Positions 6,325-25,466 of a stretch of DNA of 41,112 nt are shown one piece after another. The first letter of the stretch is position 1. Each line of letters starts with the position of its first letter. Made by a program: the position numbers and the translations under genes. The notes beneath the pieces are model-generated. The model did not search any database and was not told the origin of the DNA. It saw nothing but the letters and a program-made list of their open reading frames with translations. This DNA is from Actinomycetota bacterium (GTDB taxonomy: Bacteria > Actinomycetota > Acidimicrobiia > Acidimicrobiales > Ilumatobacteraceae). The stretch is from positions 1 to 41,112 of the forward strand of contig JAYVMH010000257.1 of NCBI GenBank assembly GCA_043759015.1, in the 5' to 3' direction.

Positions 6325-7263
6325 TCAGACCGGCACCGTCGCCGGGTCGTAGTCGAGCAGGCCGTACCCGGCCGCGCCCTTGTTGGGGATGGTCGGGTCC
6401 TGGAGGGCGCGCCCTTCCTCCAGCAACCAGCGCGCCACGTTGTTGCCCCGCTCCCGGCGGGCCGCCTCGTAGCGCCCGAACGCGTCCGGCACGGTCCCCG
6501 CCGCGGTGAGCGAGCGGGCCAGCACCACGGCGTCCTCCACGGCCATCGCCGCCCGCTGGCCGAGGAACGGCGTCATCGGGTGGGCGGCGTCACCGAGCAT
6601 CGCCACGCGGCCGATCGTCCACCGGGCCAACGGTGCCCGGTCGGAGAGGCCCCACTTGAACAGCGCGCCGTCGGGGACGGCGCGGATCAGATCGAGCAGG
6701 TGCGGTGCGAAGTCGGCGTAGGCGTCGAGGAACTGGTCGCTGGTGGCCGGGATCGACCATCCCTCCTCCTCCCAGGTATCGGTGCGCCCGCAGCCGATCA
6801 GGTTCATCAACTGCCCGCCGCGCAGCGGGTAGTGGAGCAGGTAGCGGTCGGGACCCCGGTGCATCGCTAGCTCGCGCCGGCGCACGATGTCGGGCACCAG
6901 TGCGTCGGGTAGGACCGCCCGGAACGCCACCTGCCCGTTGAAGCGCGCCGGTTCGCCGGGGAACACGAACGAGCGCACGGCCGACCCGTTGCCGTCAGCG
7001 CCCACCACCACGCCGGCGCGGTCGGTCACCCCGTTGGCGAACCGCACGCTGACCCCGTCGGCGTCCTGCTCCAGGGCCGTGAACTCGTGCGCCGCGTGCA
7101 CCGCGTGCGGGTCGTTGCCGCGCACGGCCGCCAGCAGGACGCTGTGCACATCGGCGCGGTGCACGGCCAGCGACGGCAGCCCGAAGCGGGCGGCGATCGA
7201 CTCGTTCGGCACGGCCGACAGGATCTCGCCGGTCGCGTAGTCACAGGCGTGCAGGATGGTCAT
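6325..7263 (-). CDS. FAD-dependent monooxygenase (salicylate/3-hydroxybenzoate hydroxylase-like) lacking the N-terminal FAD fingerprint; probable pseudogene
   Basis: Homology-like sequence runs from MTILHACDYATGEIL...HRADVHSVLLAAV...GADGNGSAVR...MLGDAAHPMTPFLGQRAAMAVEDA to the stop at 6325. The longer 421-aa ORF (to 7590) has a Pro/Ser/Arg-rich N-terminus with no GxGxxG Rossmann motif. Only degenerate, frame-shifted echoes of it appear in 7264-7500 (VITDAGDH, DLDAGHT). Confidence 0.6.
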   Translation of the reverse strand: MTILHACDYATGEILSAVPNESIAARFGLPSLAVHRADVHSVLLAAVRGNDPHAVHAAHEFTALEQDADGVSVRFANGVTDRAGVVVGADGNGSAVRSFVFPGEPARFNGQVAFRAVLPDALVPDIVRRRELAMHRGPDRYLLHYPLRGGQLMNLIGCGRTDTWEEEGWSIPATSDQFLDAYADFAPHLLDLIRAVPDGALFKWGLSDRAPLARWTIGRVAMLGDAAHPMTPFLGQRAAMAVEDAVVLARSLTAAGTVPDAFGRYEAARRERGNNVARWLLEEGRALQDPTIPNKGAAGYGLLDYDPATVPV

Positions 7264-7549
7264 GCAGCTCGACACGTCGGGACTGGCCAAGTCACAGTTG
7301 CGGGCCAGGATGGGCGAGCTGCTCACACGTGTGCCCGGCATCGAGGTCGGCGAGCCCGAGTTCGCCGCGGGGAACTTCATCCGGGTCGTGACCTGACTCC
7401 GGTGCACGTCCCCTGATCCGGGGTCGCCGCTCCGGTGGTGGCTCACACCGGTCGGCGCAGTGGTCGCCGGCGTCGGTGATGACCCAGGCGGGCACGGCCG
7501 TCCAGAGTTCGGCCCGCGGTCCCGGGTCGTGGCCCGTGTCGAGTGATCG

Positions 7550-7954
7550 TCAGCTCGGACCGGGTTCCACGACCGCGATGTGGTTGCCATCGGGGTCCCG
7601 CATCATGAACAGCAGCGGCGCACCCGGCGTCTGCATCGGCTCGGGATCCAGATCGATGCCGCCGATGGCGCTGAGCCGGCGATGCTCGCCGAGCACGTCC
7701 GGCGTCTCCACGCCGATCCCGCTCCCGCCCGGTGCGCCACCCATAGGAGGGTTGAGGGCCAACCGTGCGTGCGACCCGGGCGGGGCGACCTCGACCCAAC
7801 GGTGCTCGCCGTTCTCGCCGAAGCGGGTGTCGGAGCGCACTTCGAAGCCGAGCTTCTGGGTGTAGAAGGCGAGCGCGGCGTCCTGGTCGGCGACCGTGAA
7901 CATGGCGACACCGATGTCGGCCATGGTCGTCTTCGTGAGCTTGTCGTCAGTCAT
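7550..7954 (-). CDS. VOC-family (glyoxalase/bleomycin-resistance/dioxygenase fold) protein
   Basis: 134-aa ORF: MTDDKLTKTTMADIGVAMFTVADQDAALAFYTQKLGFEVRSDTRFGENGEHRWVEV...FMMRDPDGNHIAVVE. This is the typical VOC pattern. Confidence 0.9.
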   Translation of the reverse strand: MTDDKLTKTTMADIGVAMFTVADQDAALAFYTQKLGFEVRSDTRFGENGEHRWVEVAPPGSHARLALNPPMGGAPGGSGIGVETPDVLGEHRRLSAIGGIDLDPEPMQTPGAPLLFMMRDPDGNHIAVVEPGPS

Positions 7955-8153
7955 GGATGTACAGACCGGGTGGGCCGCCGGAACTCATCGGTTCCGCCGA
8001 AGGTCGGTGTGGGCCGGGTCCAGCGCGGTTGCGCGTGAGTCGTTGGTCCCGTTCGTCGCCTACGGTCGGCCGACGTGCGGTGGGCCGAAGAGCCCACGTC
8101 GCCCGGGGATGCAATCGACACCGCGGCTCGGCGCCGCCAGGGAAGGAACGCAG

Positions 8154-9128
8154 ATGAGGTATCGGCGACTGGGGCGTACCGCCCTGCAGGTGAGTGAGCT
8201 CTGCCTGGGCACGATGAACTTCGGGCCGGAAACCCCCGAGCCCGAATCGGGTCAGATCATGGACCGAGCGCTCGAGCTCGGCATCAACTTCTTCGACACG
8301 GCGAACCGCTACGGCGGCAGCCAAGGGTACGGCGCCACCGAGGAGATCGTGGGGCGCTGGTTCGCCCAGGGCGGCGGGAGGCGCGAGAAGGTCGTGCTGG
8401 CCACCAAGGCCTACGGGGCGATGAGCGACTGGCCCAACGACGGCCGCCTGTCGGCGCGCCACATCCGAGCTGCGTGCGACGCCAGCCTGCGTCGCATGCA
8501 GACCGACCACATCGATCTGTACCAGATGCACCACGTCGACCGCACCGCCCCGTGGGACGAGATCTGGCCGGCGATGGAGACCCTTGTGAACCAGGGCAAG
8601 ATCATCTACGTCGGCAGTAGCAACTTCGCCGGCTGGCACATCACCCAGGCCAACGAGACGGCCCGCCAGCGCGGCTTCCTGGGCCTCGTGAGCGAGCAGA
8701 GCCACTACAACCTGGCGGTGCGCACCGTGGAGCTCGAAGTCCTCCCGGCGTGTCGTCACTACGGCGTCGGGGTCATTCCGTGGAGCCCGCTGTCGGGTGG
8801 CATCCTCGGCGGTGTCCTCGGCGACGAGGCGACGGCTCGCCGCCGCTCACCGCAGGCGCTGCGCCGCATCGAGAAGCTCCGTCCAAAGCTGGAGCGATGG
8901 GAGGCGCTGTGCGCCGAGCTCGGCGAGCCGCCCGCCGCAGTGGCGCTGGCATGGCTGCTGCACCAGGACGGCGTCACGTGCCCCATCATCGGACCGCGCA
9001 CCATGGACCAGTTCGACGGCGCCTCGCTGCGGGCGCTCGATGTCGAGCTGAGCGCCGACGTGCTGACCCGCATCGACGCCATCTTCCCGGGTCCCGGTGG
9101 CCCCGCCCCCGAGGCGTACTCCTGGTAG
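8154..9128 (+). CDS. aldo/keto reductase
   Basis: ATG 8154 follows GGAAGGA. The protein starts MRYRRLGRTALQVSELCLGTMNFG and contains FFDTANRYG, LRRMQTDHIDLYQMHHVD and GVIPWSPLSGG. Confidence 0.92.
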   Translation: MRYRRLGRTALQVSELCLGTMNFGPETPEPESGQIMDRALELGINFFDTANRYGGSQGYGATEEIVGRWFAQGGGRREKVVLATKAYGAMSDWPNDGRLSARHIRAACDASLRRMQTDHIDLYQMHHVDRTAPWDEIWPAMETLVNQGKIIYVGSSNFAGWHITQANETARQRGFLGLVSEQSHYNLAVRTVELEVLPACRHYGVGVIPWSPLSGGILGGVLGDEATARRRSPQALRRIEKLRPKLERWEALCAELGEPPAAVALAWLLHQDGVTCPIIGPRTMDQFDGASLRALDVELSADVLTRIDAIFPGPGGPAPEAYSW

Positions 9129-9223
9129 CCGAGCCGACCGCGGCGTCTCCACTTCGCCGCCACACCCCGCCGCCATCGACCAATCGATCCGACGGGTGAC
9201 GTCACCGGGTCCTGACGCTCGAT

Positions 9224-9255
9224 GCCCCCGGTGGTCGCGCCGACGCACCGGGGGC
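9224..9255. terminator. perfect 10-bp-stem hairpin between convergent genes
   Basis: gcccccggtg-(12 nt)-caccgggggc lies between the AKR stop (9128) and the nitroreductase stop (9255). Confidence 0.5.
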
Positions 9256-9938
9256 TATGAAGCGTCGAACCCGACGAACCTGACGTCGTCGTCGTCGGCC
9301 GACCGTCGCGACACGACGTGGTTCGCCACGAACTCGTCGTCCGGCCAGCCCATCGCCACGCAGGTCATGATCACTTCGTCCTCGGGGATGTTCGCGTGCT
9401 CGCGGACCACCGAGGACTGCATGATCCCCTGACCGTTGATCACACAACCCAGCCCCTTCGATGTGGCGGCCAGCACGAGACCGTAGGTGGCGGCGCCGCA
9501 GTCGAAGTGAGCCACGGTGTCGTCGGCGAGCTCCCGGTCGATGGTGATCACCACCGACACCGGCGCGTCGAACTGCCGGAAGCCACGCATGACCCAGTCC
9601 TGGCGCCCGGCCTTGTCGTCCCGCTCGATGCCCATGGCCTCGAAGAGCTGCACCGCGATCTCGACCTGGCGCGCCCGGTGCACCCCTTGGTAGCCGTGGC
9701 CACTCATCTTGATCTCGCGATCCACCGACGCGCCCGCCAGCATCCGCTCGGCGTTGCCCGAGCGGATCCGTTCGAGCGGAGCGCCCGTGATGGCGTGGAA
9801 GTTCCAGGGTTGGGTGTTCATCGAGGACGGTGCCCGCTTGGCGATGGCGATGATCTCGCTCATCAGCTCCTGAGACACGGGATCCGGCGTGAATCCGCGG
9901 GTGCTGCGCCGAGCCGCGACGAGTGCTTCAAAGTCCAT
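9255..9938 (-). CDS. nitroreductase-family protein
   Basis: 227 aa: MDFEALVAARRSTRGFTPDPVSQELMSEIIAIAKRAPSSMNTQPWNFH... This is the classical nitroreductase N-terminus. Confidence 0.92.
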   Translation of the reverse strand: MDFEALVAARRSTRGFTPDPVSQELMSEIIAIAKRAPSSMNTQPWNFHAITGAPLERIRSGNAERMLAGASVDREIKMSGHGYQGVHRARQVEIAVQLFEAMGIERDDKAGRQDWVMRGFRQFDAPVSVVITIDRELADDTVAHFDCGAATYGLVLAATSKGLGCVINGQGIMQSSVVREHANIPEDEVIMTCVAMGWPDDEFVANHVVSRRSADDDDVRFVGFDAS

Positions 9939-10033
9939 TCGAGATGCCTCCGGTTCCGTGTTCGCCCCATTCTGTGGTGGAACGAGGGTTGCACCACCAA
10001 TCGAGCAGGGCGGACGGACACGCCATCGTTGTA

Positions 10034-10054
10034 ATAACTGACTTAGTCAGTTAT
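10034..10054. promoter_or_regulatory. perfect 21-bp AT-rich palindrome, probable TetR operator
   Basis: ATAACTGACT-T-AGTCAGTTAT has 10+1+10 arms that are all complementary. It ends 1 nt before the TetR ATG (10056) and lies in the 117-nt divergent region shared with the nitroreductase gene. Confidence 0.7.
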
Positions 10055-10055
10055 C

Positions 10056-10769
10056 ATGCTCGGCATGGCTCGCATCGCCCCGTCGGATCGGTTGGAGCAG
10101 CTGATCGCAGCGGCGGCCGCGGCGTTCGTGGAGCACGGCTTCGAGCGCACCCAGATGGACGACATCGCCAATCGCCTCGGCGTCTCGAAGGGCACGATCT
10201 ACCGGTCGGTCGCATCGAAGGAGGCCCTCTTCGCCGCGGTGCTCATCCACGCCGATGACCCAGCGCCCTTGAGTGGCGTCGGTGCGCTCGACCCCGTCGA
10301 GTGGTCGGACCTGTCGGTGCTGCTGCGTGACGAGCTCGCCAGGAGGGTCCAGTCCCTCGGTCTTGCGTCGACGGTCGCGTCACGGACCAGATCGACCCGC
10401 CCCTTCGTCGGCGACATCGGTGAGGAGATCGCGGCGCTGACCCGGGGCGCGTACTCGATGATGGCCGAACGGCGGGTCGCGGTGATGGTTCTGGATCGGT
10501 GTGCATCGGAGATCCCCGGCATCACCGTCGGTTGGTACGACCACGGACGCTACGCGCTCGTCGATCTGTGGGCTCGCTACCTCGACCTGCGCCGCGAGCA
10601 CATCTCCACCGCGGTCGAGCATGACGTGCTCGCCCGCACGATCGTCGAGATCATCACCCTGTGGGCCGTCAAGATGCCCTGGGACCCCGCCCCCCGTCCG
10701 TACCCGCACGACCTCGGCGAAGCGTGCGCCGCAATGATCCGAGCGCTCGTCACCGGAGGCACCCCTTGA
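10056..10769 (+). CDS. TetR/AcrR-family transcriptional regulator
   Basis: N-terminal HTH: RLEQLIAAAAAAFVEHGFERTQMDDIANRLGVSKGTIYRSVASKEALF. An alternative start exists at 10065. Confidence 0.92.
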   Translation: MLGMARIAPSDRLEQLIAAAAAAFVEHGFERTQMDDIANRLGVSKGTIYRSVASKEALFAAVLIHADDPAPLSGVGALDPVEWSDLSVLLRDELARRVQSLGLASTVASRTRSTRPFVGDIGEEIAALTRGAYSMMAERRVAVMVLDRCASEIPGITVGWYDHGRYALVDLWARYLDLRREHISTAVEHDVLARTIVEIITLWAVKMPWDPAPRPYPHDLGEACAAMIRALVTGGTP

Positions 10770-11449
10770 CCACCCGCATCCCGACCACTCCCGGCAGTTC
10801 GCCTGACCCGACCCGGCCTGGCGCCGTCAATCGCGTCCGATCCCGTCAGGCGGGCCACCCTTCGGGCTGGCTCGGGCGGATCATCGGGCGCGTCATGGTG
10901 AAGGACACCGCCGCGGCCAACGACCGTGCCATCGCCTTGCTCCACCTCACCGAACCTTCCACGGTTCTCGAGATCGGGTTCGGCCAGGGCCGCACCGTCG
11001 GCGCGCTCGTCGCCGCCGGTCACCGAGTGCTCGGCGCTGACGCCTCGGCCACGATGGTCGCGCAGGCGACCGCCCGGAATCGTCGGGCGTGCGTCGACGG
11101 GCGGGCGCAACTCGTGCACTCGGACGGCACCACCGTCGCATTCCCTGACGGGAGCGCCGACGCGGCGCTCACCGTGCACACCGTCTACTTCATGGCCGAT
11201 GCGTCAGCGACGATCGCCGAGGTTGCCCGGGTCCTCCGACCGGGCGGCCGCTTCGTCGTGGCCTGCCGGGTCGGCGACGACCCCATGCCGGCATGGATGG
11301 ACGGCGTCGTCTACCGGATCCCGACCATCGCCCGGATCCGCTCCCTGCTCGAGGGCGCCGGCTTCACCGAGATCGCCCATCATCCCGGGAGCGCAGCAAC
11401 CCACGACACCCACTGGTTCAGCGGTGACCTCGAGCGGCGATCGGCGTAG
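10766..11449 (+). CDS. class I SAM-dependent methyltransferase
   Basis: Contains VLEIGFGQGRTVGALVAAGHRVLGADAS (motif I) and VLRPGGRFVV. I propose a TTG start at 10766 that overlaps the TetR stop (TTGA), with GGAGG at 10755-10759. The first ATG/alt start in the ORF track (10661) would overlap the TetR gene. Confidence 0.8.
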   Translation: MTTRIPTTPGSSPDPTRPGAVNRVRSRQAGHPSGWLGRIIGRVMVKDTAAANDRAIALLHLTEPSTVLEIGFGQGRTVGALVAAGHRVLGADASATMVAQATARNRRACVDGRAQLVHSDGTTVAFPDGSADAALTVHTVYFMADASATIAEVARVLRPGGRFVVACRVGDDPMPAWMDGVVYRIPTIARIRSLLEGAGFTEIAHHPGSAATHDTHWFSGDLERRSA

Positions 11450-11450
11450 C

Positions 11451-11855
11451 TCAGGCGGATGGGCGGCTGCTTCGGCCCCCGTCGCAGACGCAGAACTCGT
11501 TGCCTTCCGGATCGGCCATGACGAGCCACGTGTTGCCGTGTTCGTGGCACGGTTCGGTGCCGACGATGCTTCCGCCGAGGGCTTGGAGCCGGGCTGCCTC
11601 GGCCCGGATGTCGTCGGCGTCGATGTCGAGGTGCATCCGGTTCTTCCCACTCCGGGGTTCGGTGACGCGCTGGAGGAGGAGCTTCGGTCCGTTCCCGGCG
11701 CGCGGGGAGAGCGCGACGTAGGCGCCGGCGGCGCCGGCGACGACGTAGTCGAGTGCGGCGGACCAGAACGGGGCGAGGCGGTCGGGGTCGGCGCAGTCGA
11801 GCACGAGCCCGAAGCGGTGGCGGATGCGATCGGTCATGTCCGTGCCTCCAGTCAT
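11451..11855 (-). CDS. VOC/glyoxalase-like domain protein
   Basis: Contains RHRFGLVLDCADPDRLAPFWSAALDYV...LLLQRVTEPRSGKNRMHLDIDADD...ADPEGNEFCV. The ATG at 11855 overlaps the upstream ArsR stop (ATGA). An alternative ATG at 11837 has a GGAGG 7 nt upstream. Confidence 0.85.
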   Translation of the reverse strand: MTGGTDMTDRIRHRFGLVLDCADPDRLAPFWSAALDYVVAGAAGAYVALSPRAGNGPKLLLQRVTEPRSGKNRMHLDIDADDIRAEAARLQALGGSIVGTEPCHEHGNTWLVMADPEGNEFCVCDGGRSSRPSA

Positions 11856-12547
11856 GAGGCGATCTCCTCGGTCGGGTGGGGTTCGGTGGGCAGGCGGGCG
11901 TTGCGCCACTCTGGATAGCCGTCCACGAGGCGTCGCGCACGCCGTCCGCGGCGGCGGAGGAGTTGGACGGCATCATCGGCGAACACGCAGTACGGGCCGC
12001 GGCAGTACGCGATGATCTCGATGTCGGAGGGCAGGTTGCGGATCTGTTCGGCGAGGCGCGCGATGGGGATCGAGAGCGCGCCGGCCACGTGGCCGGCGGC
12101 GTACTCGGTGTCGGGTCGGACGTCGATGACGATGACGTCCCCGTCGGCGATCCGGCGGACCAGTTCATCGCGCGGGATCTGCTCGAGGTCGTCACGATGG
12201 CCGAGGTAGGCGGCGGCCAGGTCGTCGATGGTGGCGTGGTGGGAGGCTGCGACAGACCGCAGTGCGGCCCACAGCGCGGCGACCTGGTCCGAGGCGAGTC
12301 GGTAGTAGATGCGGGTGCCGTCGCGTCGGGTCGTGACGAGGCCGACCGTGGCGAGCGCGCGGAGGTGGAACGAGGTGTTGGCGACGCTCTGGCCGATCTC
12401 GGCGGCGAGCTCGTCGACGTGGCGTTCGCCCTGGGCGAGGACATCGACGAGCTCCGCCCGTCGGCCGTTGCCGAGCGCTCTGGCGACCTCGGCGAAGCCG
12501 TCGAACAGCGCGTCCTTCTTTTCGCGATCGCCCACCATCACCACCAT
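11852..12547 (-). CDS. ArsR/SmtB-family transcriptional regulator fused to a C-terminal rhodanese domain
   Basis: The wHTH is ELVDVLAQGERHVDELAAEIGQSVANTSFHLRALATVGLVTTRRDGTRIYYRL. It is followed by a rhodanese module with the active-site loop IIAYCRGPYCVFA. This is the C-terminal third of a spurious 677-aa ORF in the track. Confidence 0.9.
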   Translation of the reverse strand: MVVMVGDREKKDALFDGFAEVARALGNGRRAELVDVLAQGERHVDELAAEIGQSVANTSFHLRALATVGLVTTRRDGTRIYYRLASDQVAALWAALRSVAASHHATIDDLAAAYLGHRDDLEQIPRDELVRRIADGDVIVIDVRPDTEYAAGHVAGALSIPIARLAEQIRNLPSDIEIIAYCRGPYCVFADDAVQLLRRRGRRARRLVDGYPEWRNARLPTEPHPTEEIAS

Positions 12548-12548
12548 G

Positions 12549-12608
12549 CTCAAAGACCTGCTTGACAATCTACCCCCCTCGTCGCGAGCATTCAAGCAGT
12601 TGTTTGAG
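12549..12608. promoter_or_regulatory. divergent promoter/operator region with a 17-nt imperfect inverted repeat
   Basis: The arms are ctcaaagacctgcttga (12549-12565) and tcaagcagttgtttgag (12592-12608), 15/17 complementary and 26 nt apart. On the minus strand there is a TTGAAT (12595-12590), a 17-nt spacer, then TAGATT (12572-12567). On the plus strand TTGACA sits at 12562-12567. Confidence 0.45.
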
Positions 12609-12616
12609 GAGGTCGT

Positions 12617-13963
12617 GTGCGTGTCCATCCGTTCGTCGATGAGGGCCTCGGCCATTCGTCGTACCTGATCGACCTCGGCGACGGCACCGCCGCTGTCGTC
12701 GATCCGCCGCGCTTCCCGACGGCACACGAGCGCATGGCCCGATCCCTCGGATTGACGGTGGCGTGGACGCTCGACACCCACTCCCACGCCGACTACGTGA
12801 CCGGCAGCCCGGCGCTCGCCGCCCGGGCGGGGGCGGCGTTCGTCGCGCCGGCCGCGTCGCGCCTCGACTCGCGCCATCGCCCGGTACGTGATGGGGAGCA
12901 CGTCGGTCTGGCGGATGGGGTCGAGCTCGTGGCGGTGGCGACACCCGGCCACACGCCCGACCATCACGCGTACGTGCTGCTGGGGCACGGGGCACCGCTG
13001 GCACTGTTCTCCGGCGGGTCGCTGATGGTGGGTACCGTGGGCCGGACCGACCTGTGCGGCCCGGATCTCGCCGTGCCGCTGGCGCACGAGATGTTCGCCG
13101 GGCTGCGGCGTTTCGATGACCTTCCCGGGGATCTGCCGGTGTACCCGACCCACGGAGCCGGCTCGTTCTGCTCTGCGCCGGGCGCGTCGCGGCGGACGTC
13201 GACGTTGGCCCGTGAGCGGGCGACGAACCCGCTGTTCTCGATCCTCGACGAGGACCGCTTCGTCGAGCAGCTCGTCGCTGGTTTCGGCACGTTCCCGAGC
13301 TACTTCGCCCGCCTCCCGGAGCTGAACCGTCGGGGTCCGGCTCGCTACGACTCGATCCCACGATTGGCTGAGCTCGACCATGACCGCGTCGATCGCCACA
13401 TGAGCGGAGGGGGCGTGGTGGTCGATGCCCGGCCGATCGCCTCGTTCGCAGCCGCTCATGTACCGGGGTCGCTGTCCAATGCGTTGCGCCCGGTCTTCGC
13501 CAGTTGGCTCGGGTGGCTGGTCGAGGCCGATCGACCGCTCGCGTTCGTGCTGGACGAGGGCCAGGACCGAGACGAGCTGGTGCGTCAGTGTCTCGACGTC
13601 GGCCACGAGAACCTCGTCGGCGTGGTGGCTGGCGGCATCGACTCCTGGGGCGCCGCAGGTCGCCCGCTGAGCACCATCCCACTGGTCGACACCGCCGGCG
13701 TGGTCGGGCGGATCGTCGATGTCCGCCAGGCCAACGAGTACGCCTCCGGTCACCTCCCGGCGGCCGAGAACATCGAGCTCGGCGCCGTTCAGGGCGCAGG
13801 GTTGCCGGGCGGCCCGGTCACGGTGATGTGCGGCCACGGCGAGCGCGCCATGTCGGGGGCGAGCATCCTGGTGGCGAACGGGCACACCGAGGTGGTCGTC
13901 CTCGATGGCGGGCCCGAGTCCTGGTCAGCCGAGACCGGGCGGCCGCTGGCGACGGGACGATGA
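12617..13963 (+). CDS. MBL-fold hydrolase fused to two rhodanese domains (persulfide dioxygenase-sulfurtransferase type)
   Basis: GTG 12617 follows GAGGAGG. The protein contains GHSSYLIDLGDGTAAVVDP and the metal motif LDTHSHADYVTGS. Two rhodanese-like modules follow (VVVDARPIASFAAAHVPGS...; IVDVRQANEYASGHLPAAENI...VTVMCGHGERA). Confidence 0.9.
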   Translation: MRVHPFVDEGLGHSSYLIDLGDGTAAVVDPPRFPTAHERMARSLGLTVAWTLDTHSHADYVTGSPALAARAGAAFVAPAASRLDSRHRPVRDGEHVGLADGVELVAVATPGHTPDHHAYVLLGHGAPLALFSGGSLMVGTVGRTDLCGPDLAVPLAHEMFAGLRRFDDLPGDLPVYPTHGAGSFCSAPGASRRTSTLARERATNPLFSILDEDRFVEQLVAGFGTFPSYFARLPELNRRGPARYDSIPRLAELDHDRVDRHMSGGGVVVDARPIASFAAAHVPGSLSNALRPVFASWLGWLVEADRPLAFVLDEGQDRDELVRQCLDVGHENLVGVVAGGIDSWGAAGRPLSTIPLVDTAGVVGRIVDVRQANEYASGHLPAAENIELGAVQGAGLPGGPVTVMCGHGERAMSGASILVANGHTEVVVLDGGPESWSAETGRPLATGR

Positions 13964-15213
13964 GCGCGCCGGCGGGGGAGGTGCCGCTGCGGCTGGGGTT
14001 GAGGCAGAACATCGCCCAGTTCTCGCTCCTCGTCGGGGTCAACGCGCTCGTCGGCGGGATGATCGGTCAGGAACGCACCGTGCTGCCCCTGCTCGCCAAG
14101 CAGGCGTTCGGTCTCACTGCGTTCACGGCGACGCTCACGTTCATCGTGGCGTTCGGCGCGGTCAAGGCGGCGACGAACTTCTTTGCCGGGACCCTCTCCG
14201 ATCGCCACGGCCGCAAGCCCGTGCTCGTCGCCGGCTGGTTGTTCGCGCTGCCGGTGCCGCTGCTGCTCATCTGGGCGCCGACGTGGGGCTGGGTGGTGTT
14301 CGCCAACGTGCTCCTGGGTGTGAACCAGGGCCTGACCTGGTCGACCACGGTGATCATGAAGATCGACCTCGTCGGACCGGCCCGTCGGGGGTTCGCCATG
14401 GGGCTCAACGAGGCTGCCGGCTACGGCGCCGTCGCCGTCACCGCACTCGTGACCGGCTACATCGCCCAACACGCCGGCCTGCGCCCCGAACCGTTCTTCC
14501 TCGGCATCGCCTACGCCGGCCTCGGCCTCGGCCTGTCGGTGTTCCTCGTGCGCGAGACCCATGCCCACGCCCGTCACGAGGCGGCCACCCACGTGGCGTC
14601 CCCGTCCGGCCATGCCGACGGGCTCAGCACCGCCGAGATCTTCCGACTCACCTCGTTCCGGGACAAGGCGTTGTCGTCGTGCTCGCAGGCCGGGCTGGTC
14701 AACAACCTCAACGACGGGCTCGCCTGGGGTCTGTTCCCCATCTTCTTCGCCGCCTCCGGCCTCTCCATCGCTCGCGTCGGTGTGCTCGCGGCGCTCTACC
14801 CTGCGGTGTGGGGGCTCGGGCAGCTCTACACCGGCGGCCTTTCCGATCGCGTCGGGCGCAAGCCCCTCATCGCCGGTGGGATGCTCACCCAGGCCGCCGC
14901 CATCGCCTGGATCGCCGCCTCGGGCAGCTTCGTGACCTGGGCCGTCGGGGCGATGGTGCTCGGTGCCGGGACCGCCATGGTCTACCCGACCCTGCTCGCC
15001 GCCGTCGGCGACGTCGCCCACCCCGCCTGGCGTGCCCGATCCGTCGGCGTCTATCGGCTGTGGCGCGACGGCGGGTTCGCCATCGGCGCGCTCCTCGCCG
15101 GGGTGCTCGCCGACCTCGTCTCCATCCCCGCCGCCATCTACGCGGTCGCCGCGCTCACTGCCCTGTCCGGTCTGGTCGTCGCCGTCCGCATGTACGAGAC
15201 GCACCCACGATGA
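13960..15213 (+). CDS. MFS transporter
   Basis: ATG 13960 overlaps the upstream stop (ATGA). The protein has about 12 hydrophobic segments and the MFS loop GTLSDRHGRKPV, repeated as GGLSDRVGRKPL in the second half. Confidence 0.9.
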   Translation: MSAPAGEVPLRLGLRQNIAQFSLLVGVNALVGGMIGQERTVLPLLAKQAFGLTAFTATLTFIVAFGAVKAATNFFAGTLSDRHGRKPVLVAGWLFALPVPLLLIWAPTWGWVVFANVLLGVNQGLTWSTTVIMKIDLVGPARRGFAMGLNEAAGYGAVAVTALVTGYIAQHAGLRPEPFFLGIAYAGLGLGLSVFLVRETHAHARHEAATHVASPSGHADGLSTAEIFRLTSFRDKALSSCSQAGLVNNLNDGLAWGLFPIFFAASGLSIARVGVLAALYPAVWGLGQLYTGGLSDRVGRKPLIAGGMLTQAAAIAWIAASGSFVTWAVGAMVLGAGTAMVYPTLLAAVGDVAHPAWRARSVGVYRLWRDGGFAIGALLAGVLADLVSIPAAIYAVAALTALSGLVVAVRMYETHPR

Positions 15214-15599
15214 CCAGTCACGGCGGTGAGATCCACCCGATCGATGAGATCCTCGCTGCTGCACGCGCACGCCTGGATCGTGTCGAGCCGTACGCTCTGG
15301 AGACGGAGCGACTCGCGGGGGCGCTCATCGTCGACACGCGCCCCGTCCAGCAACGCCAGCGTGACGGCGAGCTGCCTGGCGCGGTCGTGATCGATCGGAA
15401 CGTCCTCGAGTGGCGTCTCGACCCCGCGTGCGATCATCACATCGCCCAGGTCACCAACTACGACGTGCGCGTGATCGTGGTCTGCAACGAGGGGTACAGC
15501 TCCAGTCTCGCGGCGGCCATGCTGCGCGAGATCGGCCTGCACCGCGCAACCGATCTCGCCGGCGGCTACCAGGCCTGGATCGAACAGGGCCGGCCGTAG
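15210..15599 (+). CDS. single-domain rhodanese-like sulfurtransferase
   Basis: ATG 15210 overlaps the MFS stop (ATGA). The protein contains ALIVDTRPVQQRQRDGELPGAVVI...VIVVCNEGYSSSLAAAMLREIG...GGYQAW. Confidence 0.88.
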   Translation: MTSHGGEIHPIDEILAAARARLDRVEPYALETERLAGALIVDTRPVQQRQRDGELPGAVVIDRNVLEWRLDPACDHHIAQVTNYDVRVIVVCNEGYSSSLAAAMLREIGLHRATDLAGGYQAWIEQGRP

Positions 15600-15807
15600 A
15601 CCGGATCGGTGTCGGGCGCCCCCTATGACCCCGACCCAAGCGTGGCCACAGACGTGTGCCGCTGGTGAGGGCTGAGCGCTCGCCTCGCGGCCACCGTAGG
15701 GTGCAGGTACCGGAGCCAGTCGTCCGGACGTCCGAATTCCGGCAGGTCGCTACCGGCGAGTGCCACCCCCAGTGTCAGTGGCCCCGCGGCGCTGATAGGT
15801 TCGATGC

Positions 15808-16227
15808 ATGGCCGGTCGGTTCGTTCGCGTGGTCGTTGCGGCGACCGCCGTCGTCCTTTCGCTGCTGTTACTGCTCTGCGTCGTGCTCGCTGACCACCAC
15901 GGGCCCGAGGCCTCGTCGGTCACCTCGACAGTCGCAGTCTCGGCCCGCGCTTCTAGCGACCTGGCAAGTCACGATCATGGTTCGTCTCATGAAGACGGCC
16001 GTAGCAGCAGTGGGTGCGCACTCGCCGATGTGGTCGCGGCGATCGGTCTTCCCGGTCCTCACGGCTCGTCGTCGATCCCGATGGTCCTGGCGGTGGTCCT
16101 CCTGGGGCTGCTGGGTACGTTCGGGGGCGTCAGTCAGCGACTCGTCGGGTTCGGCATCGCGTCGCCGAGCCGATCCCGGCGGAGCAACGCGCCCGCACTC
16201 GCCGCACTCTGCATCTCGCTGACGTAG
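15808..16227 (+). CDS. small two-TM membrane protein with HH and Cys motifs and a conserved C-terminal tail (paralogue of 26909-27301)
   Basis: MAGRFVRVVVAATAVVLSLLLLLCVVLADHH...SSGCALADVVAAIG...second TM...SRSRRSNAPALAALCISLT. It shares architecture and a C-terminal DNA/protein block with 26909-27301. A TAGGTT hexamer ends 6 nt before the ATG. Confidence 0.65.
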   Translation: MAGRFVRVVVAATAVVLSLLLLLCVVLADHHGPEASSVTSTVAVSARASSDLASHDHGSSHEDGRSSSGCALADVVAAIGLPGPHGSSSIPMVLAVVLLGLLGTFGGVSQRLVGFGIASPSRSRRSNAPALAALCISLT

Positions 16228-16403
16228 AGCAAGCGGTTCCGCGCAGATCGATGGTGCCGTGCTGTCCAGGGTTCGGGCTCCCTGAGGTCACATCGACGAG
16301 CCCCCGACGGTCCGACACCGCCCCGATCATCGGCCCCTGAGCCTGGTGGTCGCTCGACTTCTGTATCTGGATCGAGGTCACTCGACATCAAGGGGAGGCG
16401 TAA

Positions 16404-17377
16404 GTGAACGTGAGTGCAGAACAGTCGGCGGTTCCGGCGACAGCAGGAGTGGTGATGGAGCCCGTCGGCTGCTGCCTGTGCGGGGGCCAGGATGGGGTGC
16501 CCGTCGGCGTGGGGGAGGACTTCGAGTATCGGACATCCGACCAGTCGTTCCTGGCCGTCCAGTGCCCCCGGTGCCGTCTGGTCTACCTCGACCCGCGTCC
16601 GGCCTTGTCCGAGCTCGGCCGCATCTATCCCGATAGCTACCACGCGTTCGCATTCGATGCGGCGCAGTTCGGGATCGTGCACCGCGTGAGGAGTCGACTC
16701 GAGGCTCGCCGCTTGCTCCGAGTCGGACGCGGGCTGCCCCATGACGCCTCCGCCTCGACGTCGGGTGCGGCGACGGCTTTCACCTGGACCTCCTCCGCCG
16801 TCACGGTCCGCCGGGCTGGCGGCTCCGAGGCGTCGATACCGACGACCGCGCCGTGGCTGCCGCTCGTCGCAAGGGGCTGGCGGTCGACCTCACGACGATC
16901 GAATGCGCCGAGATCGAGCCAGGGTCCGTCGACATGGCCCTGTGCATTCAGACCGTGGAGCACGTTGCCGATCCCGTCGTGCTGCTCCAGGCGATCGCCC
17001 GTGTGCTGCGTCCGGGGGGACGCCTCTACTTGATCACGGACTCGACCGACTCGCCCGACTTCGCACTGGCGAAGGGCCGCCATTGGGGCGGCTACCACTT
17101 CCCGCGGCACTGGAACCTGTTCAACAAGGGCTCGATGCGCTTGCTGGCCGAGCGAGGCGGACTTGAGATCGACGAGTTGGGCACCGCCACGAGCCCCGTG
17201 AACTGGACCTACAGCGTGCGCAACTGGTTGGACGATTGGGGCGCACCGCGTTGGATCGTCGATCGGTTCTCGTTGTCCGACGCGCCAGCGCTCGCCGTGT
17301 TCACAGTCCTCGACGGCGTGCTCACCGCTGCGGGTCGGGGCGCTCTGCTGCGCGTGGTCCTTCGGAGGCGGGTATGA
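16404..17377 (+). pseudogene. Zn-ribbon-containing class I SAM-dependent methyltransferase, interrupted by a frameshift near 16745-16750
   Basis: Frame 3 (GTG 16404 after GGGGAGG) encodes CCLCGG...CPRCRLVYLDPRP...RLEARRLLRVGRGLPHDA. Frame 2 continues directly after an in-frame TGA (16742-16744) with RLRLDVGCGDGFHLDLL...VLRPGGRLYLITD... to the stop at 17377. Restoring one C in the C-run at 16747-16748 gives ...GLPHDALRLDVGCGDG... Confidence 0.75.
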
Positions 17378-18693
17378 GTGCTGCACGTCCGCCGGTGGTG
17401 GTGATCGGCGGCGGCATCGCCGGTCTCGTCGCCGCTCACGAACTCACCAGGCACGGCGTGGACGCCGACGTCTACGAGGCGGGCTCCCGCCTGGCTGGCA
17501 TGGCCGCCAGCCACGTCGACGCGGACGGCTTCAGCTACGACGTCGGTGCACACTTCGTGACGAACAGGTTCGTGGCTGCGCTCGGCATGCCCGGTCCGTT
17601 CCACGTGTTGCCCCGCTATGGCGAGGTGGTGCACCTGAGTGCACGGCGCCACCCGCACTATCCGGTCGGGCTACTCGGCGTACCCCGCTACGTCACGAGC
17701 GCGCTGGCTGAGCGGGTGCGTCGGCCTGATCGGGATCTGCGGGTGGCGGCGGATCGGTTCCGTCACGACTACGGCGCGGCGCTCGCCGAGGAGGTCGCCC
17801 TGCCGTTGTTGGAAGCGTGGTCCGGTCTGCCGGCAGAGCAGCTCTCGGCCAGCGTGATCGACAAGATCCCGACGGGGCTGGCTCAGACGATCTGGCTGCG
17901 GGCGGCGCAGCGCCTGACCCGTCGCGCAGTCATGATTGGCTATTGCAAGGAGGAGCCGTCCGCCACGGGCGTCCACCACGTGTCACCAGCTGCAGGCGTC
18001 GGCGCCATCTGCGACCACGTCGCCAGCCAGCTGCCCCGGAGGGTCCAGGTCGACCAGCCCGCTCAAGCGGTCTATGTCGACGATGGTCGGGTCGTCGGTG
18101 CGCGGGTGAACGGGCGCGACATCGATACCGACACGGTCATCTCGACGCTGCCGGTGCATCGGCTGCCGGACCTCGTGCAGGGCAGCGATCGGCTGGAGCG
18201 TTTCGGCCGGTTCCGGTTCCGCGGTCTCGTGCTGGTGAACCTCAAGCTCCTCGGTCGTGATCTGTTGCCCGACGTCGTGGTGTGGACGCCACACGGGTTC
18301 CCGTACTTCCGGGTCACCGAGACACCGCTGTCGATGCCGTGGACCGCTCCAGAGGGCAAGACCATGATCCTGTGCGAGCTCGGTGCCCAACCCGGCGACG
18401 ACGTGTGGAACCTCTCCGATGACGACCTCGTCGATCGATGCGTGACGACGATTGGCCCCCTGGTCGGAGATATCAGTTCCCGAGTGATCGGTGCCAGAGT
18501 ACTGCGCCAGCCGCTCGGCTACCCCGTGTTCGCCCTGGACTACGAGGACGACCGTGCCGACCTCGCCGCGAACGGTACGGGTGTGGCGGGCCTGTACAGC
18601 ATCGGACGGAACGGCGAGTTCGATCACATTCTGATGGAAGACACGTTCTGGCGCGTACGGCGGTTGATCCCGCGCATCCTCAGTGACCGATAG
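17374..18693 (+). CDS. NAD(P)/FAD-dependent oxidoreductase (amine-oxidase/HemY-like fold)
   Basis: ATG 17374 overlaps the methyltransferase stop (ATGA). The protein starts MSAARPPVVVIGGGIAGLVAAHELTRHGVDADVYEAGSRLAGM (GxGxxG plus an acidic residue at the strand end). The C-terminal motif is GLYSIGRNGEFDHILMED. Confidence 0.88.
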   Translation: MSAARPPVVVIGGGIAGLVAAHELTRHGVDADVYEAGSRLAGMAASHVDADGFSYDVGAHFVTNRFVAALGMPGPFHVLPRYGEVVHLSARRHPHYPVGLLGVPRYVTSALAERVRRPDRDLRVAADRFRHDYGAALAEEVALPLLEAWSGLPAEQLSASVIDKIPTGLAQTIWLRAAQRLTRRAVMIGYCKEEPSATGVHHVSPAAGVGAICDHVASQLPRRVQVDQPAQAVYVDDGRVVGARVNGRDIDTDTVISTLPVHRLPDLVQGSDRLERFGRFRFRGLVLVNLKLLGRDLLPDVVVWTPHGFPYFRVTETPLSMPWTAPEGKTMILCELGAQPGDDVWNLSDDDLVDRCVTTIGPLVGDISSRVIGARVLRQPLGYPVFALDYEDDRADLAANGTGVAGLYSIGRNGEFDHILMEDTFWRVRRLIPRILSDR

Positions 18694-19200: not shown

Positions 19201-20073
19201 TCAGTGCGGGCAGAGGGCGGCGGCGAGACGCTCGAGGTGGTGGAGCTGGAACGCCGCGAACCCGGTGGCGATCAGGAGCGACATCCACAATGCCGCGGTG
19301 AGCGTGCGGTGCGTGGGCGTCGGCGCTGGCCCGATGAGGGCCTCGACCCGGCCGATCACACCCAACCCGGTGAACCCGGCCGCGACGACAGGCGTGTGAC
19401 CGAACAGCGCGACCTTGCCGAGCGTGTCGGCGACCAGGCGGCGATCGCCGCAGGCTCGTACGGCGCTCTCGTCGGCCCACCGCTCCAGCGAGTAGCGGAC
19501 GCGGCGGGTGAGCCATCGGAGCGGGGGCAGGATGGCGCCGGCGAGCTCGGCAACGAGCAGGTAGCGGTCGTGGCGGTGGCGGGCGTGGGCGCGCTCGTGC
19601 GCCAGCACGACGTCGGTCTCGCGCTCATCGAGGAGGTCGACGAGACCCTGGGAGATGATGATGCGGCCGCCCCGTCCAGGCCTCGTGATGGCGAACGGGC
19701 GCTCGTCGGTGCTCACTTCGACTGGGCCGGGAAGGTCGGCGCGAAGCTGATGGTGCTCACCGAGAAGTCCCCTGGCCCGCCAGGAGCCGTGAGCCAACAG
19801 GACGATGGCGGGAACACCTACCCAGGCGGGCACAGTGCCGTGGAGCCCGAACGCCTGGGCACACCAGCGGAGCCCGAAGCCGAGCAGGGGCAAGTGGGCG
19901 AGGAAGCCGAGCGCCACGAGCCCGAGCGTGGGGAGGGCGGCCACACCGATCAGCACGAGGCTCGCGGTCACGTACCGGGCGGCGACGGGTGGGGGCAGGC
20001 GCCGGTGTGCCGTCGAGCTGGCGACGGTGATGGCGACGGCCACCGCCAACGGGTACAGCAGCGCGGCGCCCAT
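19201..20073 (-). CDS. M56-family (BlaR1-like) membrane zinc metalloprotease without a penicillin-binding sensor domain
   Basis: 290 aa with 4 N-terminal TM segments and the HExxH motif VVLAHERAHARHRHD. A C-terminal TM is followed by the tail FQLHHLERLAAALCPH. The ATG shares one base with the BlaI-like stop (TGATG). Confidence 0.88.
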   Translation of the reverse strand: MGAALLYPLAVAVAITVASSTAHRRLPPPVAARYVTASLVLIGVAALPTLGLVALGFLAHLPLLGFGLRWCAQAFGLHGTVPAWVGVPAIVLLAHGSWRARGLLGEHHQLRADLPGPVEVSTDERPFAITRPGRGGRIIISQGLVDLLDERETDVVLAHERAHARHRHDRYLLVAELAGAILPPLRWLTRRVRYSLERWADESAVRACGDRRLVADTLGKVALFGHTPVVAAGFTGLGVIGRVEALIGPAPTPTHRTLTAALWMSLLIATGFAAFQLHHLERLAAALCPH

Positions 20074-20432
20074 CAGGTGCCGTCGCTGTCGAGGAGGCGT
20101 CGGAGCAGGCGGGCGTCGCGCTTGGAGAGCCCGTCGACGAACCGCACGAGGACCTTGCTGCGATCGCTGGCATCGGCGAGGACGGCGTCGATCCGCTGGG
20201 CGGCCAGCTCGGACTCGTCGAGCACGGCACGGTAGGCGAACGCCCGACCGACGGGCTCGCGCTCCACCAGGCCCTTGCCGTGGAGACGGGTGAGGATGGT
20301 GGCGACCGTGGTGTAGGCCAAGGGCTGCGGTAGCCGATCGTTGACCTCGGCGGGCTGGAACGGTCGATCGGCACGCCACAGCACCTCGAGGATGTCGTGC
20401 TCCAAAGCACCATCTGGTCGACGGGTCATCAC
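20073..20432 (-). CDS. BlaI/MecI/CopY-family winged-helix transcriptional repressor
   Basis: 119 aa: LEHDILEVLWRADRPFQPAEVNDRLPQPLAYTTVATILTRLHGKGLVEREPVGRAFAYRAV. This is the Penicillinase_R-type pattern. There is no C-terminal CxC metal motif. Confidence 0.92.
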   Translation of the reverse strand: MMTRRPDGALEHDILEVLWRADRPFQPAEVNDRLPQPLAYTTVATILTRLHGKGLVEREPVGRAFAYRAVLDESELAAQRIDAVLADASDRSKVLVRFVDGLSKRDARLLRRLLDSDGT

Positions 20433-24767: not shown

Positions 24768-25466
24768 GTGGCCGTGGTGCTCGTGGTGGACGACGAGCCC
24801 CGCATCCGTGAGCTCGTCCGGCGCTACCTCGAACACGAGGGCCACCAGGTGATCACCGCGGCCAGCGGGGCCGAGGCCCTGGACGTCGCCACCCACACCG
24901 ACGTCGACCTGGTCGTGCTCGACCTGCGTCTCCCCGACGTCCCCGGCGAGGAGGTCGCGCTGGAGTTGCGCCGGCGCTCCGACGTGCCGATCCTGATGCT
25001 CACCGCCAAGATCGACGAACGCGACCGCATCCATGGCCTCGAGGTCGGGGCCGACGACTACGTCACCAAGCCGTTCAGCCCGCGCGAGCTCGTGCTCCGC
25101 ATCGGCGCCATCCTGCGACGCGGCCGCGCCGACGCGCCCACGGCGGACGTACCCGTATCCTACGGGAACGGTTCGTTGAGCATCGACGAGCTCACCCGGC
25201 GCGTGCTGGCCCACGGCCACCCGGTGGAACTGACGCCGACCGAGTGGGGCATCCTCACCACGCTCGCCGCGCAACCGGGCCGGGTGTGCTCGCGCTATGA
25301 GCTCATCAACCGGGTTCGGGGCTACGAGTTCGACGGCTACGAACGCACCGTCGACTCGCATGTGAAGAACCTGCGCCGCAAGATCGAGACCGATCCCGCC
25401 AGTCCGACCCTCGTACAGACCGTGACCGGCATCGGCTACCGGCTCGGAGTCGACCGTGATCGCTGA
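24768..25466 (+). CDS. OmpR/PhoB-family response regulator
   Basis: GTG 24768 follows GGAGG. The receiver is VVLVVDDEPRIRELV...DLVVLDLRLPD...LTAK. The winged-helix output contains TPTEWGILTTLA...VDSHVKNLRRKIE...TVTGIGYRL. Confidence 0.95.
   Translation: MAVVLVVDDEPRIRELVRRYLEHEGHQVITAASGAEALDVATHTDVDLVVLDLRLPDVPGEEVALELRRRSDVPILMLTAKIDERDRIHGLEVGADDYVTKPFSPRELVLRIGAILRRGRADAPTADVPVSYGNGSLSIDELTRRVLAHGHPVELTPTEWGILTTLAAQPGRVCSRYELINRVRGYEFDGYERTVDSHVKNLRRKIETDPASPTLVQTVTGIGYRLGVDRDR

Follow-up and report, generated by a model that had tools for sequence, protein, structure and literature searches.

Two small proteins encoded in one stretch of actinobacterial DNA share a C-terminal tail that is conserved in nucleotides as well as in residues, and the question raised by this locus is why that should be so. 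The stretch (41,112 nt, contig JAYVMH010000257.1, from a member of the Ilumatobacteraceae) is called "the window" below, always at its full length, and its features are on the + strand unless marked. The two open reading frames (ORFs) are copy 1 (15808-16227, 139 aa) and copy 2 (26909-27301, 130 aa). The answer reached here, which formed no part of the original prediction, is that the conservation of the tail in DNA probably reflects an RNA structure that sequesters the ribosome-binding site (RBS) of the next gene. As the most likely reading, both ORFs would be cis-acting leader ORFs comparable to CutF and CruR, a proposal which, taken as a whole chain, we regard as evenly balanced between right and wrong.

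Both ORFs were found where, and with the lengths that, the original prediction had given them, and their paralogy was borne out: the proteins align from end to end with 31% identity (BLASTP expectation value (E)=1e-7), which exceeds compositional similarity. The motifs listed for them were all present, namely a basic N-terminus, a first transmembrane (TM) segment, TM1, ending C-V-x-L-x-(x)-HH, a loop with a Cys (SSGCALADVV in copy 1, SGDQCSMSELV in copy 2), and a second segment, TM2, followed by an Arg-rich stretch. The tails are APALAALCISLT and APALTALCISRT, each directly before the stop codon, and they are also alike in DNA, with ctctgcatctcg common to both copies and gacgtag at both ends. 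No third ORF with the conserved tail was found within the window. Long spurious ORFs are common in high-GC DNA and no curated family match passes its threshold, so that two unexpressed chance frames in 70% G+C DNA might be suspected; against this stand the significant similarity of the paralogues, orthologues in 13 clusters with conserved motifs, start and stop, a G+C content at third codon positions of 0.77-0.87 and a ratio of nonsynonymous to synonymous substitution (dN/dS) below 1 (0.39-0.65). Both ORFs are thus kept outside the window (the copy 1 orthologue, P0010, has 64% identity and dN/dS 0.39), and comparative conservation leaves the chance-frame explanation effectively refuted, with a probability close to nil.

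The family was sought widely. A family-profile HMMER search, exhaustive over 1.84 billion (1.84e9) protein representatives, matched 13 clusters, all from uncultured Actinomycetes; a scan of 185,579 species genomes gave 2 loci, both labelled "MAG: Actinomycetes bacterium"; word-indexed searches gave 4 relatives for copy 2 and none for copy 1. Two JGI metagenome scans added no further members, and a plasmid tblastn search with copy 2 as query gave no match. Because the HMMER, species-genome and metagenome searches yielded so few members, the family is considered real but rare. In the alignment of 14 sequences, C24 (TM1), C63 (loop), L125 and C126 are invariant and H29/H30, S128 and T130 nearly invariant; the loops are poorly conserved and variable in length (39-65 residues from TM1 to the loop Cys).

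The spacer after copy-2-type ORFs is conserved in DNA, and with the end of the ORF it makes up a conserved RNA element (Table 1). For nine copy-2-type loci, the final 30 nt of the ORF, the spacer and the next start codon were folded together, each locus independently, and the same three-tier fold recurred in all nine: an anti-Shine-Dalgarno (anti-SD) sequence paired with the Shine-Dalgarno (SD) sequence of the next gene, the tail codons paired with a box in the spacer, and a GC hairpin inside. The window sequence folds with a minimum free energy of -42.2 kcal/mol (z=-3.3), and none of 200 shuffles was as stable. A covariance model (R1) built from six loci found the element at the ORF 3' end of distant loci, L016 (E=2e-4), L017/L018 (E=8e-4) and L019 (E=0.25), with no convincing match elsewhere. 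When nine divergent loci were aligned by MAFFT alone and passed to RNAalifold, misalignment hid the long-range helices; the alignment made with the covariance model recovered them. On that alignment, which is hence fitted to the model, 87.7% of cells were paired versus 80.4% in shuffled alignments and 30-48% when the partners were slid, and double changes occurred at 13 pairs versus 5.1 expected (0 of 500 shuffles as high). The anti-SD:SD helix was paired in 100% of cells. The element had no match in Rfam.

The codons point the same way. Under synonymous recoding the native tail codons folded more stably in 9 of 9 loci (z=-1.1 to -5.0), and each of the last five invariant residues has a single codon in 7/7 closer loci, compared with 2-4 codons in 14 of the 17 upstream invariant columns; the frozen codons include AGG, which accounts for 3.8% of the window's Arg codons. 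Pairing between the end of the upstream ORF and the 14 nt ahead of the next start was predicted with P of 0.60-0.87 in the family (median 0.67); in 14 control gene pairs the median was 0.11 (p=2e-4). In distant loci the tail peptide LC[IV]SRT is kept while the codons and their pairing partners both change, and the peptide and the RNA are for this reason each under selection. There is good support for a structure that masks the RBS of the lipoprotein gene downstream of copy 2 and that a ribosome at the tail would open. We consider it improbable that the conserved 3' RNA is mainly a terminator, an attenuator or an mRNA-stabilising hairpin whose pairing with the SD is incidental. A GC-rich hairpin does stand straight after the stop codon in all loci, those of mycobacterial lpqS included (see below), but it is followed by no U-tract, its outer helices extend into the coding tail and the SD in 9/9 loci, the box pairing covaries, and the 58-nt spacer is too short for a separate promoter of the lipoprotein gene; in an analogous scan around copy 1 no terminator-like site scored.

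The start of the ORFs is as constrained as their end. The original prediction had suggested leaderless mRNAs from a TANNNT hexamer shortly before each ATG. TAGGTT lies at 15796-15801 as described; TAACGT is also present before copy 2, at 26896-26901, one position from where it had been placed, and an SD is indeed absent before both ATGs. In both copies TGN precedes the hexamer, making an extended -10 element. The nonamer TGGTAAC[GAC]T occurs at -16, exactly 7 nt before the ATG, in 10 of 11 copy-2-type loci with otherwise diverged upstream flanks (the one in L019 is counted from its real ATG, 21 nt upstream of the called start); both copy-1-type loci have TGATAGGTT-N6-ATG, and L019(-) has TGATACCGT-N7-ATG. 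Altogether an extended -10 box (TGNTANNNT; TGGTAACGT-N7-ATG or TGATAGGTT-N6-ATG) is found at a fixed position in 13/14 loci, with an SD before none. This fixed geometry, the missing SD and the diverged flanks give the leaderless idea strong comparative support, and the transcripts of both copies would accordingly begin at the start codon. A scan around copy 1 for a sigma-70 consensus or an intrinsic terminator found nothing. The conserved bases between the -10 box of copy 2 and its second codon (26902-26916, GTGATCGAC-ATG-TC) contain two overlapping palindromes, GTCGAC and GACATGTC, which may form an operator or simply belong to the start context.

The two-TM topology proposed earlier was supported by hydropathy, with two segments in each protein and the first at residues 5-32, after the basic N-terminus. 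An AlphaFold2 (AF2) model of copy 2 placed helices at 3-33 and 78-108, with low confidence (pLDDT 62, pTM 0.30) and no packed fold. Because of the basic N-terminus and the Arg-rich stretch after TM2, the positive-inside rule indicates an N-in/C-in topology, which would turn the His/Cys loop outward. The family proteins are not lipoproteins: the bacterial lipobox [LVI][ASTVI][GAS]C is absent across the 14-sequence alignment, the residue preceding the invariant Cys being V, L, M, F or A (LVCV, LLCV, LMCV, FVCV, LACA), and the helix runs on beyond this Cys.

In all 14 members the loop Cys precedes the C-terminus by 65-70 residues, and TM2 ends 24-33 residues short of that end. Once the ribosome stands at the stop codon, most of TM2 is inside the exit tunnel or at its mouth, and the loop Cys has only just left it; force- and ligand-sensing arrest peptides exploit such an arrangement of TM segment and arrest point (PMC7897499, PMC10951233). 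The stop codon itself is TAG in all 14 family genes (e.g. 16225-16227 and 27299-27301), as against 10 of 62 other or neighbouring genes, where TGA dominates. The family resembles arrest peptides (SecM, MifM and VemP; ApdA and ApdP of the RAPP type; TnaC) in being a cis-acting small ORF whose conserved C-terminus would act in the ribosome and open a downstream RBS, and in a distance between TM or signal segment and arrest point that is tuned to the length of the tunnel (PMC7897499, PMC10951233). It differs from them in that the tail resembles no known arrest motif, arrest in the window family being presumed, and in that the genes regulated are not protein-localisation factors. One member, P0011 (L015 2876-3355), has a tandem DAMTL x4 repeat in its external loop, yet its loop Cys is still 70 residues from the C-terminus.

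Gene order suggested what might be regulated. The copper island of the window includes a BlaI-type repressor, CopC-CopD, DUF305, a multicopper oxidase, and a response regulator with a histidine kinase, and it continues with copy 2, a lipoprotein, a RipC-like NlpC/P60 hydrolase and a protein of metallo-beta-lactamase (MBL) and rhodanese type. The original prediction had set copy 2 directly after the two-component system, a placement that is not conserved: in other loci a P-type ATPase, amine oxidase or Gig2-like gene lies upstream. The downstream block of copy-2-type ORFs is constant, consisting of a Met-rich lipoprotein followed by NlpC/P60, or of NlpC/P60 directly, 58-82 nt away. Since the upstream neighbour varies and the downstream block does not, the small ORF is always the first gene of its module. 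This bears on a further alternative, that copy 2 is an accessory membrane component of the two-component system which modulates the histidine kinase (25456-26835), with copy 1 as a duplicated remnant. Copy 2 starts 73 nt after the kinase gene, an order also seen in L001/L003, but the other upstream genes come without a kinase, and copy 2 has its own conserved promoter and is structurally tied to the gene downstream, which makes this alternative very improbable.

Table 1. Positions of the two small ORFs, their promoters, the RNA element and the genes downstream, in window coordinates.
Feature	Position	Strand	Description
Extended -10 element of copy 1	15793-15801	+	TGATAGGTT; 6 nt before the copy 1 ATG; same element at the same distance in L005
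Copy 1 ORF	15808-16227	+	139 aa, two-TM peptide; C24, H30/H31, loop C70, tail ALCISLT with C135, TAG stop
Copy 1 spacer	16228-16454	+	227 nt to the methyltransferase start; SD AGGAG at 16445-16449
MetW/Methyltransf_23-type S-adenosylmethionine (SAM) methyltransferase	16455-17377	+	N-terminal Cys-rich (CCxC...CxxC) segment
Flavin adenine dinucleotide (FAD) amine-oxidase/phytoene-desaturase-like flavoprotein	17236-18693	+	Start codon uncertain; conserved partner of the methyltransferase
Extended -10 element of copy 2	26893-26901	+	TGGTAACGT; 7 nt before the copy 2 ATG
Copy 2 ORF	26909-27301	+	130 aa, two-TM peptide; C24, H29/H30, loop C63-x7-C71, P113/P114, tail ALCISRT with C126, TAG stop
Conserved RNA element	27275-27362	+	88 nt: last 9 codons of copy 2, 58-nt spacer and next start codon
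RNA element, anti-SD	27280-27284	+	GCUCU; Leu-Cys codons, pairs with the SD
RNA element, 5' arm	27289-27304	+	CUCGAGGACGUAGAUC; Ser-Arg-Thr-stop codons plus AUC
RNA element, variable GC hairpin	27304-27326	+	
RNA element, 3' arm box	27332-27345	+	GAUCUCGUCUCGAG; pairs with the 5' arm
RNA element, SD	27348-27352	+	AGGAG; next start GTG at 27360
Lipoprotein	27360-27956	+	Lipobox VSAC, Met-rich MAGM stretch, H-x-H-P repeat; no known family
RipC-like coiled-coil NlpC/P60 peptidoglycan endopeptidase	27953-29146	+	Invariant downstream partner of copy-2-type ORFs (L011/L012, L016, L017/L018)

The kinship of the family was assessed with profile models. Neither window protein matched a Pfam family. The closest family is LpqS of Mycobacterium (Rv0847; NF052429, "putative copper homeostasis (lipo)protein LpqS"; PF26327): copy 2 matched NCBIfam NF052429 (LpqS_Mycobact) with 15.6 bits (E=0.015, cut-off 35), its residues 7-129 covering positions 2-125 of the 126 in the profile; copy 1 gave no match to this model. 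Eight of the 14 members matched it weakly (best E=0.0023), none reaching the cut-off. An Rv0847 query sequence, not an exact database entry but 98% identical to a real one, scored 128 bits against the LpqS model and brought up 49 real LpqS proteins; these all carry the precomputed PF26327 annotation, versus no family member. When the family profile was aligned with 20 real LpqS sequences, hhalign gave a pairwise E of 6.7e-6 and a probability of 84.7%, the match taking in 73 columns that run from the loop Cys as far as the C-terminus and leaving the N-terminal part unaligned; single-sequence hhalign comparisons with one LpqS or one DUF6153 sequence gave weak, tail-only matches. We conclude from these profile comparisons that the window family is a distant relative of LpqS which falls outside it by curated criteria.

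The likeness to LpqS extends over protein, gene and RNA. LpqS has a similar size (~130 aa), an N-terminal TM helix with a Cys and then His residues, a His-rich loop, a loop Cys ~65 residues from the C-terminus (65-70 in the window family), a second hydrophobic segment, and a tail in the same register (DLLTRFCLARR before the stop codon, compared with PALTALCISRT in copy 2); the LpqS tail pattern L-x-x-[FL]-C-[LI]-[AS]-R-[RT]-stop is shared by ALTALCISRT of copy 2 and ALAALCISLT of copy 1. The LpqS gene heads a copper-induced unit adjoining a multicopper oxidase, the codons at its end have a predicted pairing with the RBS region of the following gene, and the two chromosomal lpqS loci have a -10 box 7 nt ahead of the start codon. 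The differences are as clear. The motif G-R-G-P-P, 21 residues before the C-terminus of LpqS (R114, P116 and P117 invariant in the 20-sequence alignment), is missing from the window family: copy 2 shows G-L-A-P-P, whose P114 precedes the end by 16 residues, and copy 1 A-S-P-S. The stop codon is TGA in LpqS and TAG in the window family, which also has no lipobox; the spacer is 101-107 nt with two inner hairpins in LpqS as against 58-82 nt with one; and the downstream genes are cysK2 and a major facilitator superfamily (MFS) transporter in place of lipoprotein and NlpC/P60, or methyltransferase and oxidase. The LpqS locus is marked by a position divergent from a multicopper oxidase and ahead of cysK2 and an MFS transporter, and the window ORFs head other genes.

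Six Mycobacterium lpqS loci (two chromosomal, four plasmid) were then compared. lpqS is followed by cysK2 in 6/6, mostly with an MFS gene next, and the lpqS stop codon is TGA in all six. At a constant 101-107 nt beyond it stands a conserved ATG that shares the frame of cysK2; in four of the six loci (L020 4515, L023 3480, L024 3453, L025 3444) this ATG is upstream of the annotated cysK2 start, which in those loci is probably too short. The lpqS-cysK2 spacer folds with z=-2.7 to -3.7, a GC-rich hairpin follows the stop codon here too, and in a MAFFT/RNAalifold consensus, unbiased by any model, the last lpqS codons (UCGUCGCU) pair with AGCGACGA immediately 5' of the conserved ATG in 46 of 48 cells, the helix enclosing a hairpin with covariation. 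Before the GTG start of chromosomal lpqS, TATAGT is found at 7 nt (L020 3984-4003; L021 3969-3988), beside a palindrome which we take to be the RicR operator; lpqS may, by this spacing, be leaderless too, although the promoter pattern is less clear for the plasmid copies. The lpqS-cysK2-rv0849 operon is among those that copper induces most strongly in M. tuberculosis. An lpqS mutant had no copper phenotype and could not be complemented (PMC3944814; bioRxiv 10.64898/2026.04.16.718964), the behaviour expected of a cis-acting leader. In a literature search, no paper was found that ties LpqS to arrest peptides, upstream ORFs or leaderless translation.

DUF6153, to which the tail had been likened in the original prediction, is a partial match. 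The resemblance of the tail holds, in the same register (P-x-L-x-x-L-x-[IL]-x-R-x), but membership does not: neither window protein matched PF19650 at E<=10, and the only one of the 14 members to match, P0012, aligns from one end to the other with the profile at 16.4 bits (E=0.017), compared with a gathering threshold of 27.7, and on these HMM results membership of DUF6153 is rejected. The comparator was a DUF6153-type sequence that is not a database entry and was validated only by its own PF19650 score of 109 bits. Of these, 36 bits were lost when its last 15 residues (GRAPPSLSELQLLRI) were removed, and DUF6153 therefore has a conserved tail, in the same register as that of the window family; hhalign paired VAPALTALCISR with APPSLSELQLLR at E=0.069, a weak match. 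Both families have an N-terminal TM helix and a His/Cys-rich middle, and their tails match weakly in register. To judge from the comparator, DUF6153 differs in having RAPP directly before the tail (x-L-x-E-L-Q-L-L-R-I) and a Gln where the window family has its invariant Cys. The comparator meets the end of the DUF2946 profile exactly at RAPP.

DUF2946 (PF11162) itself matched neither window protein; 7 of the 14 members gave weak, near-full-length matches (best E=0.0025, listed scores 11.5-14 bits, threshold 23.7). Its relevance lies in CruR (Bordetella bp2923) and CutF (Rhodobacter cutFOG), exported DUF2946 peptides whose Cys motif senses copper during a stall caused by a C-terminal RAPP or Pro motif, the next gene being set via Rho termination or an RBS-masking stem (PMC9426467; bioRxiv 10.1101/2025.02.05.636593). 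Common to these and the window family are a small exported peptide with an N-in/C-out first helix, a putative Cys/His sensing motif with a C-terminal motif at a fixed distance from it, the first position in copper operons, and an mRNA stem masking the next RBS, as in CutF and as predicted for copy 2. Copy 1 has only a long spacer, comparable to the regulatory spacer of CruR. The window family, however, lacks CXXC (CruR) or CxxxC (CutF), having C-x7-C (C63, C71) in copy-2-type members and the single loop Cys C70 in copy 1, with C24 and HH as further candidate ligands. The RAPP or Pro-repeat arrest motif ~3 residues from the end is missing from its last 12 residues; a second TM helix separates the sensor Cys from the tail; the spacing from Cys to tail is ~67 residues, compared with 45±2 reported for CruR (PMC9426467); and the host is actinobacterial, with a putatively leaderless mRNA. 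The window family thus shares the logic of CruR and CutF (export helix, Cys/His, fixed spacing, first gene, masked RBS) and not their defining motifs. It is a new, rare variant in the LpqS/DUF6153/DUF2946 group of copper-associated small exported peptides, and the weak scores suggest that DUF2946, DUF6153, LpqS and the window family may form a loose superfamily.

How the leader would work can be set out as follows. Each copy would have an extended -10 promoter of its own, give rise to a leaderless mRNA and head a small module in the copper island: copy 2 followed by the Met-rich lipoprotein and the RipC-like NlpC/P60 hydrolase, copy 1 by the SAM methyltransferase and the FAD oxidase. Co-translational insertion in the N-in/C-in orientation would bring C24, HH and the loop Cys (or both loop Cys) to the outer face of the membrane. 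In copy 2 the last seven codons and the stop would form the 5' strand of the stem whose 3' strand covers the SD of the lipoprotein gene, which would be translatable only while a ribosome sits at the end of copy 2. The invariant tail, with its rare AGG codon and invariant TAG, may make the ribosome dwell there, and copper or thiol chemistry at the external Cys/His site, the insertion of TM2, or both might alter the dwell time; at termination the loop Cys would be 65-70 residues, and the end of TM2 ~24-33 residues, from the peptidyl-transferase centre. The peptide would then be a cis-acting sensor that sets downstream translation, like CutF or CruR; as to copper binding, ribosome arrest and the direction of regulation in the window family, these are what we infer. 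A bolder extension, which we consider doubtful, is that the tail P-x-L-x-x-L-C-[IV]-S-R-T plus TAG would act at the stop codon as an arrest or slow-termination module of a new kind that does without RAPP, released or reinforced by TM2 insertion and copper/thiol chemistry, in a new class of leaderless two-TM metal sensors that act on translation, with LpqS as a cis leader gating cysK2 and LpqS, DUF6153 and DUF2946 as one superfamily of nascent peptides that sense copper.

Several observations weigh against the leader proposal. The anti-SD:SD helix is invariant and so offers no covariation of its own; its CUCU is near-automatic from the preferred Leu-Cys codons, and synonymous recoding gave no significant drop in SD pairing. 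Three of the 14 control gene pairs also have P>0.5, and the family loci are phylogenetically related, so that the statistics overstate their independence. No profile reaches a curated threshold, which makes the homology to LpqS, DUF2946 and DUF6153 distant; the DUF2946 arrest motif is missing (LAPP, 16 residues from the end, is all that copy 2 offers, and copy 1 has no PP), and so is CXXC. An RBS-occluding stem can serve plain translational coupling without sensing, and two TM helices with three invariant Cys would also fit a stable metal-binding membrane protein. In copy 1 the pairing of tail and RBS was predicted with P=0.62 in the window, 0.15 in L005 and 0.21 in L019(-), no better than with shuffled tails; an RBS-occluding fold for copy 1, predicted in the window and not reproduced in the other two loci, is not supported. 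In promoter design, peptide architecture, tail and TAG stop, copy 1 does agree with copy 2. The spacer of copy 1 has equivalents of 249 and 292 nt in two other copy-1-type loci, and a rut-like composition (C>G) in these spacers was not above background.

The most serious competitor, possible though on the whole rather unlikely, takes both ORFs for stable small membrane proteins that bind Cu(I) via Cys/His, as a metallochaperone, a copper buffer, or a partner or subunit of the lipoprotein and NlpC/P60 proteins, with the stem as ordinary translational coupling by which the partners are produced jointly, and neither sensing nor arrest. It would account for the full-length conservation of three invariant Cys, HH and two hydrophobic helices, for dN/dS <1 across the whole ORF, for a location in copper islands and for a downstream lipoprotein that is Met/His-rich like periplasmic Cu(I) binders, and occlusion of the RBS by an upstream ORF is seen in some control gene pairs too. 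What it explains poorly is that the loops are little conserved and variable in length and yet the distance from the loop Cys to the C-terminus is fixed, that dN/dS of 0.4-0.65 is high for a structural protein and AF2 gave no packed fold, and that the membrane separates the tail Cys from the other ligands. An unvarying TAG, a rare AGG and synonymous sites that are frozen direct attention to the ribosome or the mRNA; the downstream partners of the two copies are unlike each other; and LpqS, a relative, shows no phenotype as a protein and could not be complemented in trans (PMC3944814).

The genes around the two copies gave further observations. The lipoprotein gene product matched nothing in PDB, Pfam or NCBIfam, and its AF2 model from a single sequence was unusable (pLDDT 37). 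By an in-frame deletion it lacks ~90 aa plus ~21 aa of its homologues (L011/L012 at 301 aa, L001, L015, L019), including most of the Met/His-rich stretch and the first "KKMHLIVVRxDLSGYQHLHP" repeat. The NlpC/P60 protein aligns full-length with the RipC model, coiled coil and catalytic domain included, with a score far below threshold; this thiol-dependent wall hydrolase (27953-29146) is a puzzling constant output for a copper-island module. The BlaI/Penicillinase_R-type repressor (20073-20432, - strand) adjoins CopC-CopD and DUF305 and is paired in L017 with an M48 BlaR-like peptidase (2304-3520), which suggests that the repressor part of the copper island is under CopY-like regulation. L019 carries a divergent pair of family ORFs (1727-2131 on the - strand and 2304-2711 on the + strand), one leading to a lipoprotein gene and the other to a methyltransferase gene, mirroring the window copies.

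The original prediction had also tied copy 1 to an upstream "persulfide locus A", and this association is not conserved: those genes are absent at L005, where the methyltransferase and amine oxidase downstream are kept, and a functional link between copy 1 and the upstream persulfide/rhodanese genes is rejected because of their absence beside the L005 orthologue. The difference amounts to ~10 kb (window 4893-15600, with MBL-rhodanese, MFS and rhodanese "persulfide" genes) which is absent from the syntenic L005 7166-10001, either by insertion in the window lineage or by deletion in the other. L005 has a GGDEF-EAL gene ~2.8 kb upstream of the copy 1 orthologue. The window methyltransferase is frameshifted near 16750, being a single 307-aa gene in L005/L006: it matches the L005 gene in one frame to about residue 98 and then in another, through either the frameshift of a pseudogene or a sequencing error.

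To our knowledge, copper sensing by nascent exported peptides has so far been described only for proteobacterial DUF2946 proteins (CruR, CutF). If the window family and LpqS work alike, the mechanism reaches the Actinobacteria, where the arrest sequence would be another one, the mRNAs leaderless and the peptide equipped with a second TM helix. Rfam does not contain the conserved 88-nt element. The regulated genes include a RipC-like cell-wall cysteine peptidase, and copper islands may, speculatively, carry spare thiol-dependent wall hydrolases tuned to copper stress. For LpqS of M. tuberculosis, the proposal would, if true, provide a testable function, that of a cis-acting leader gating the translation of cysK2.

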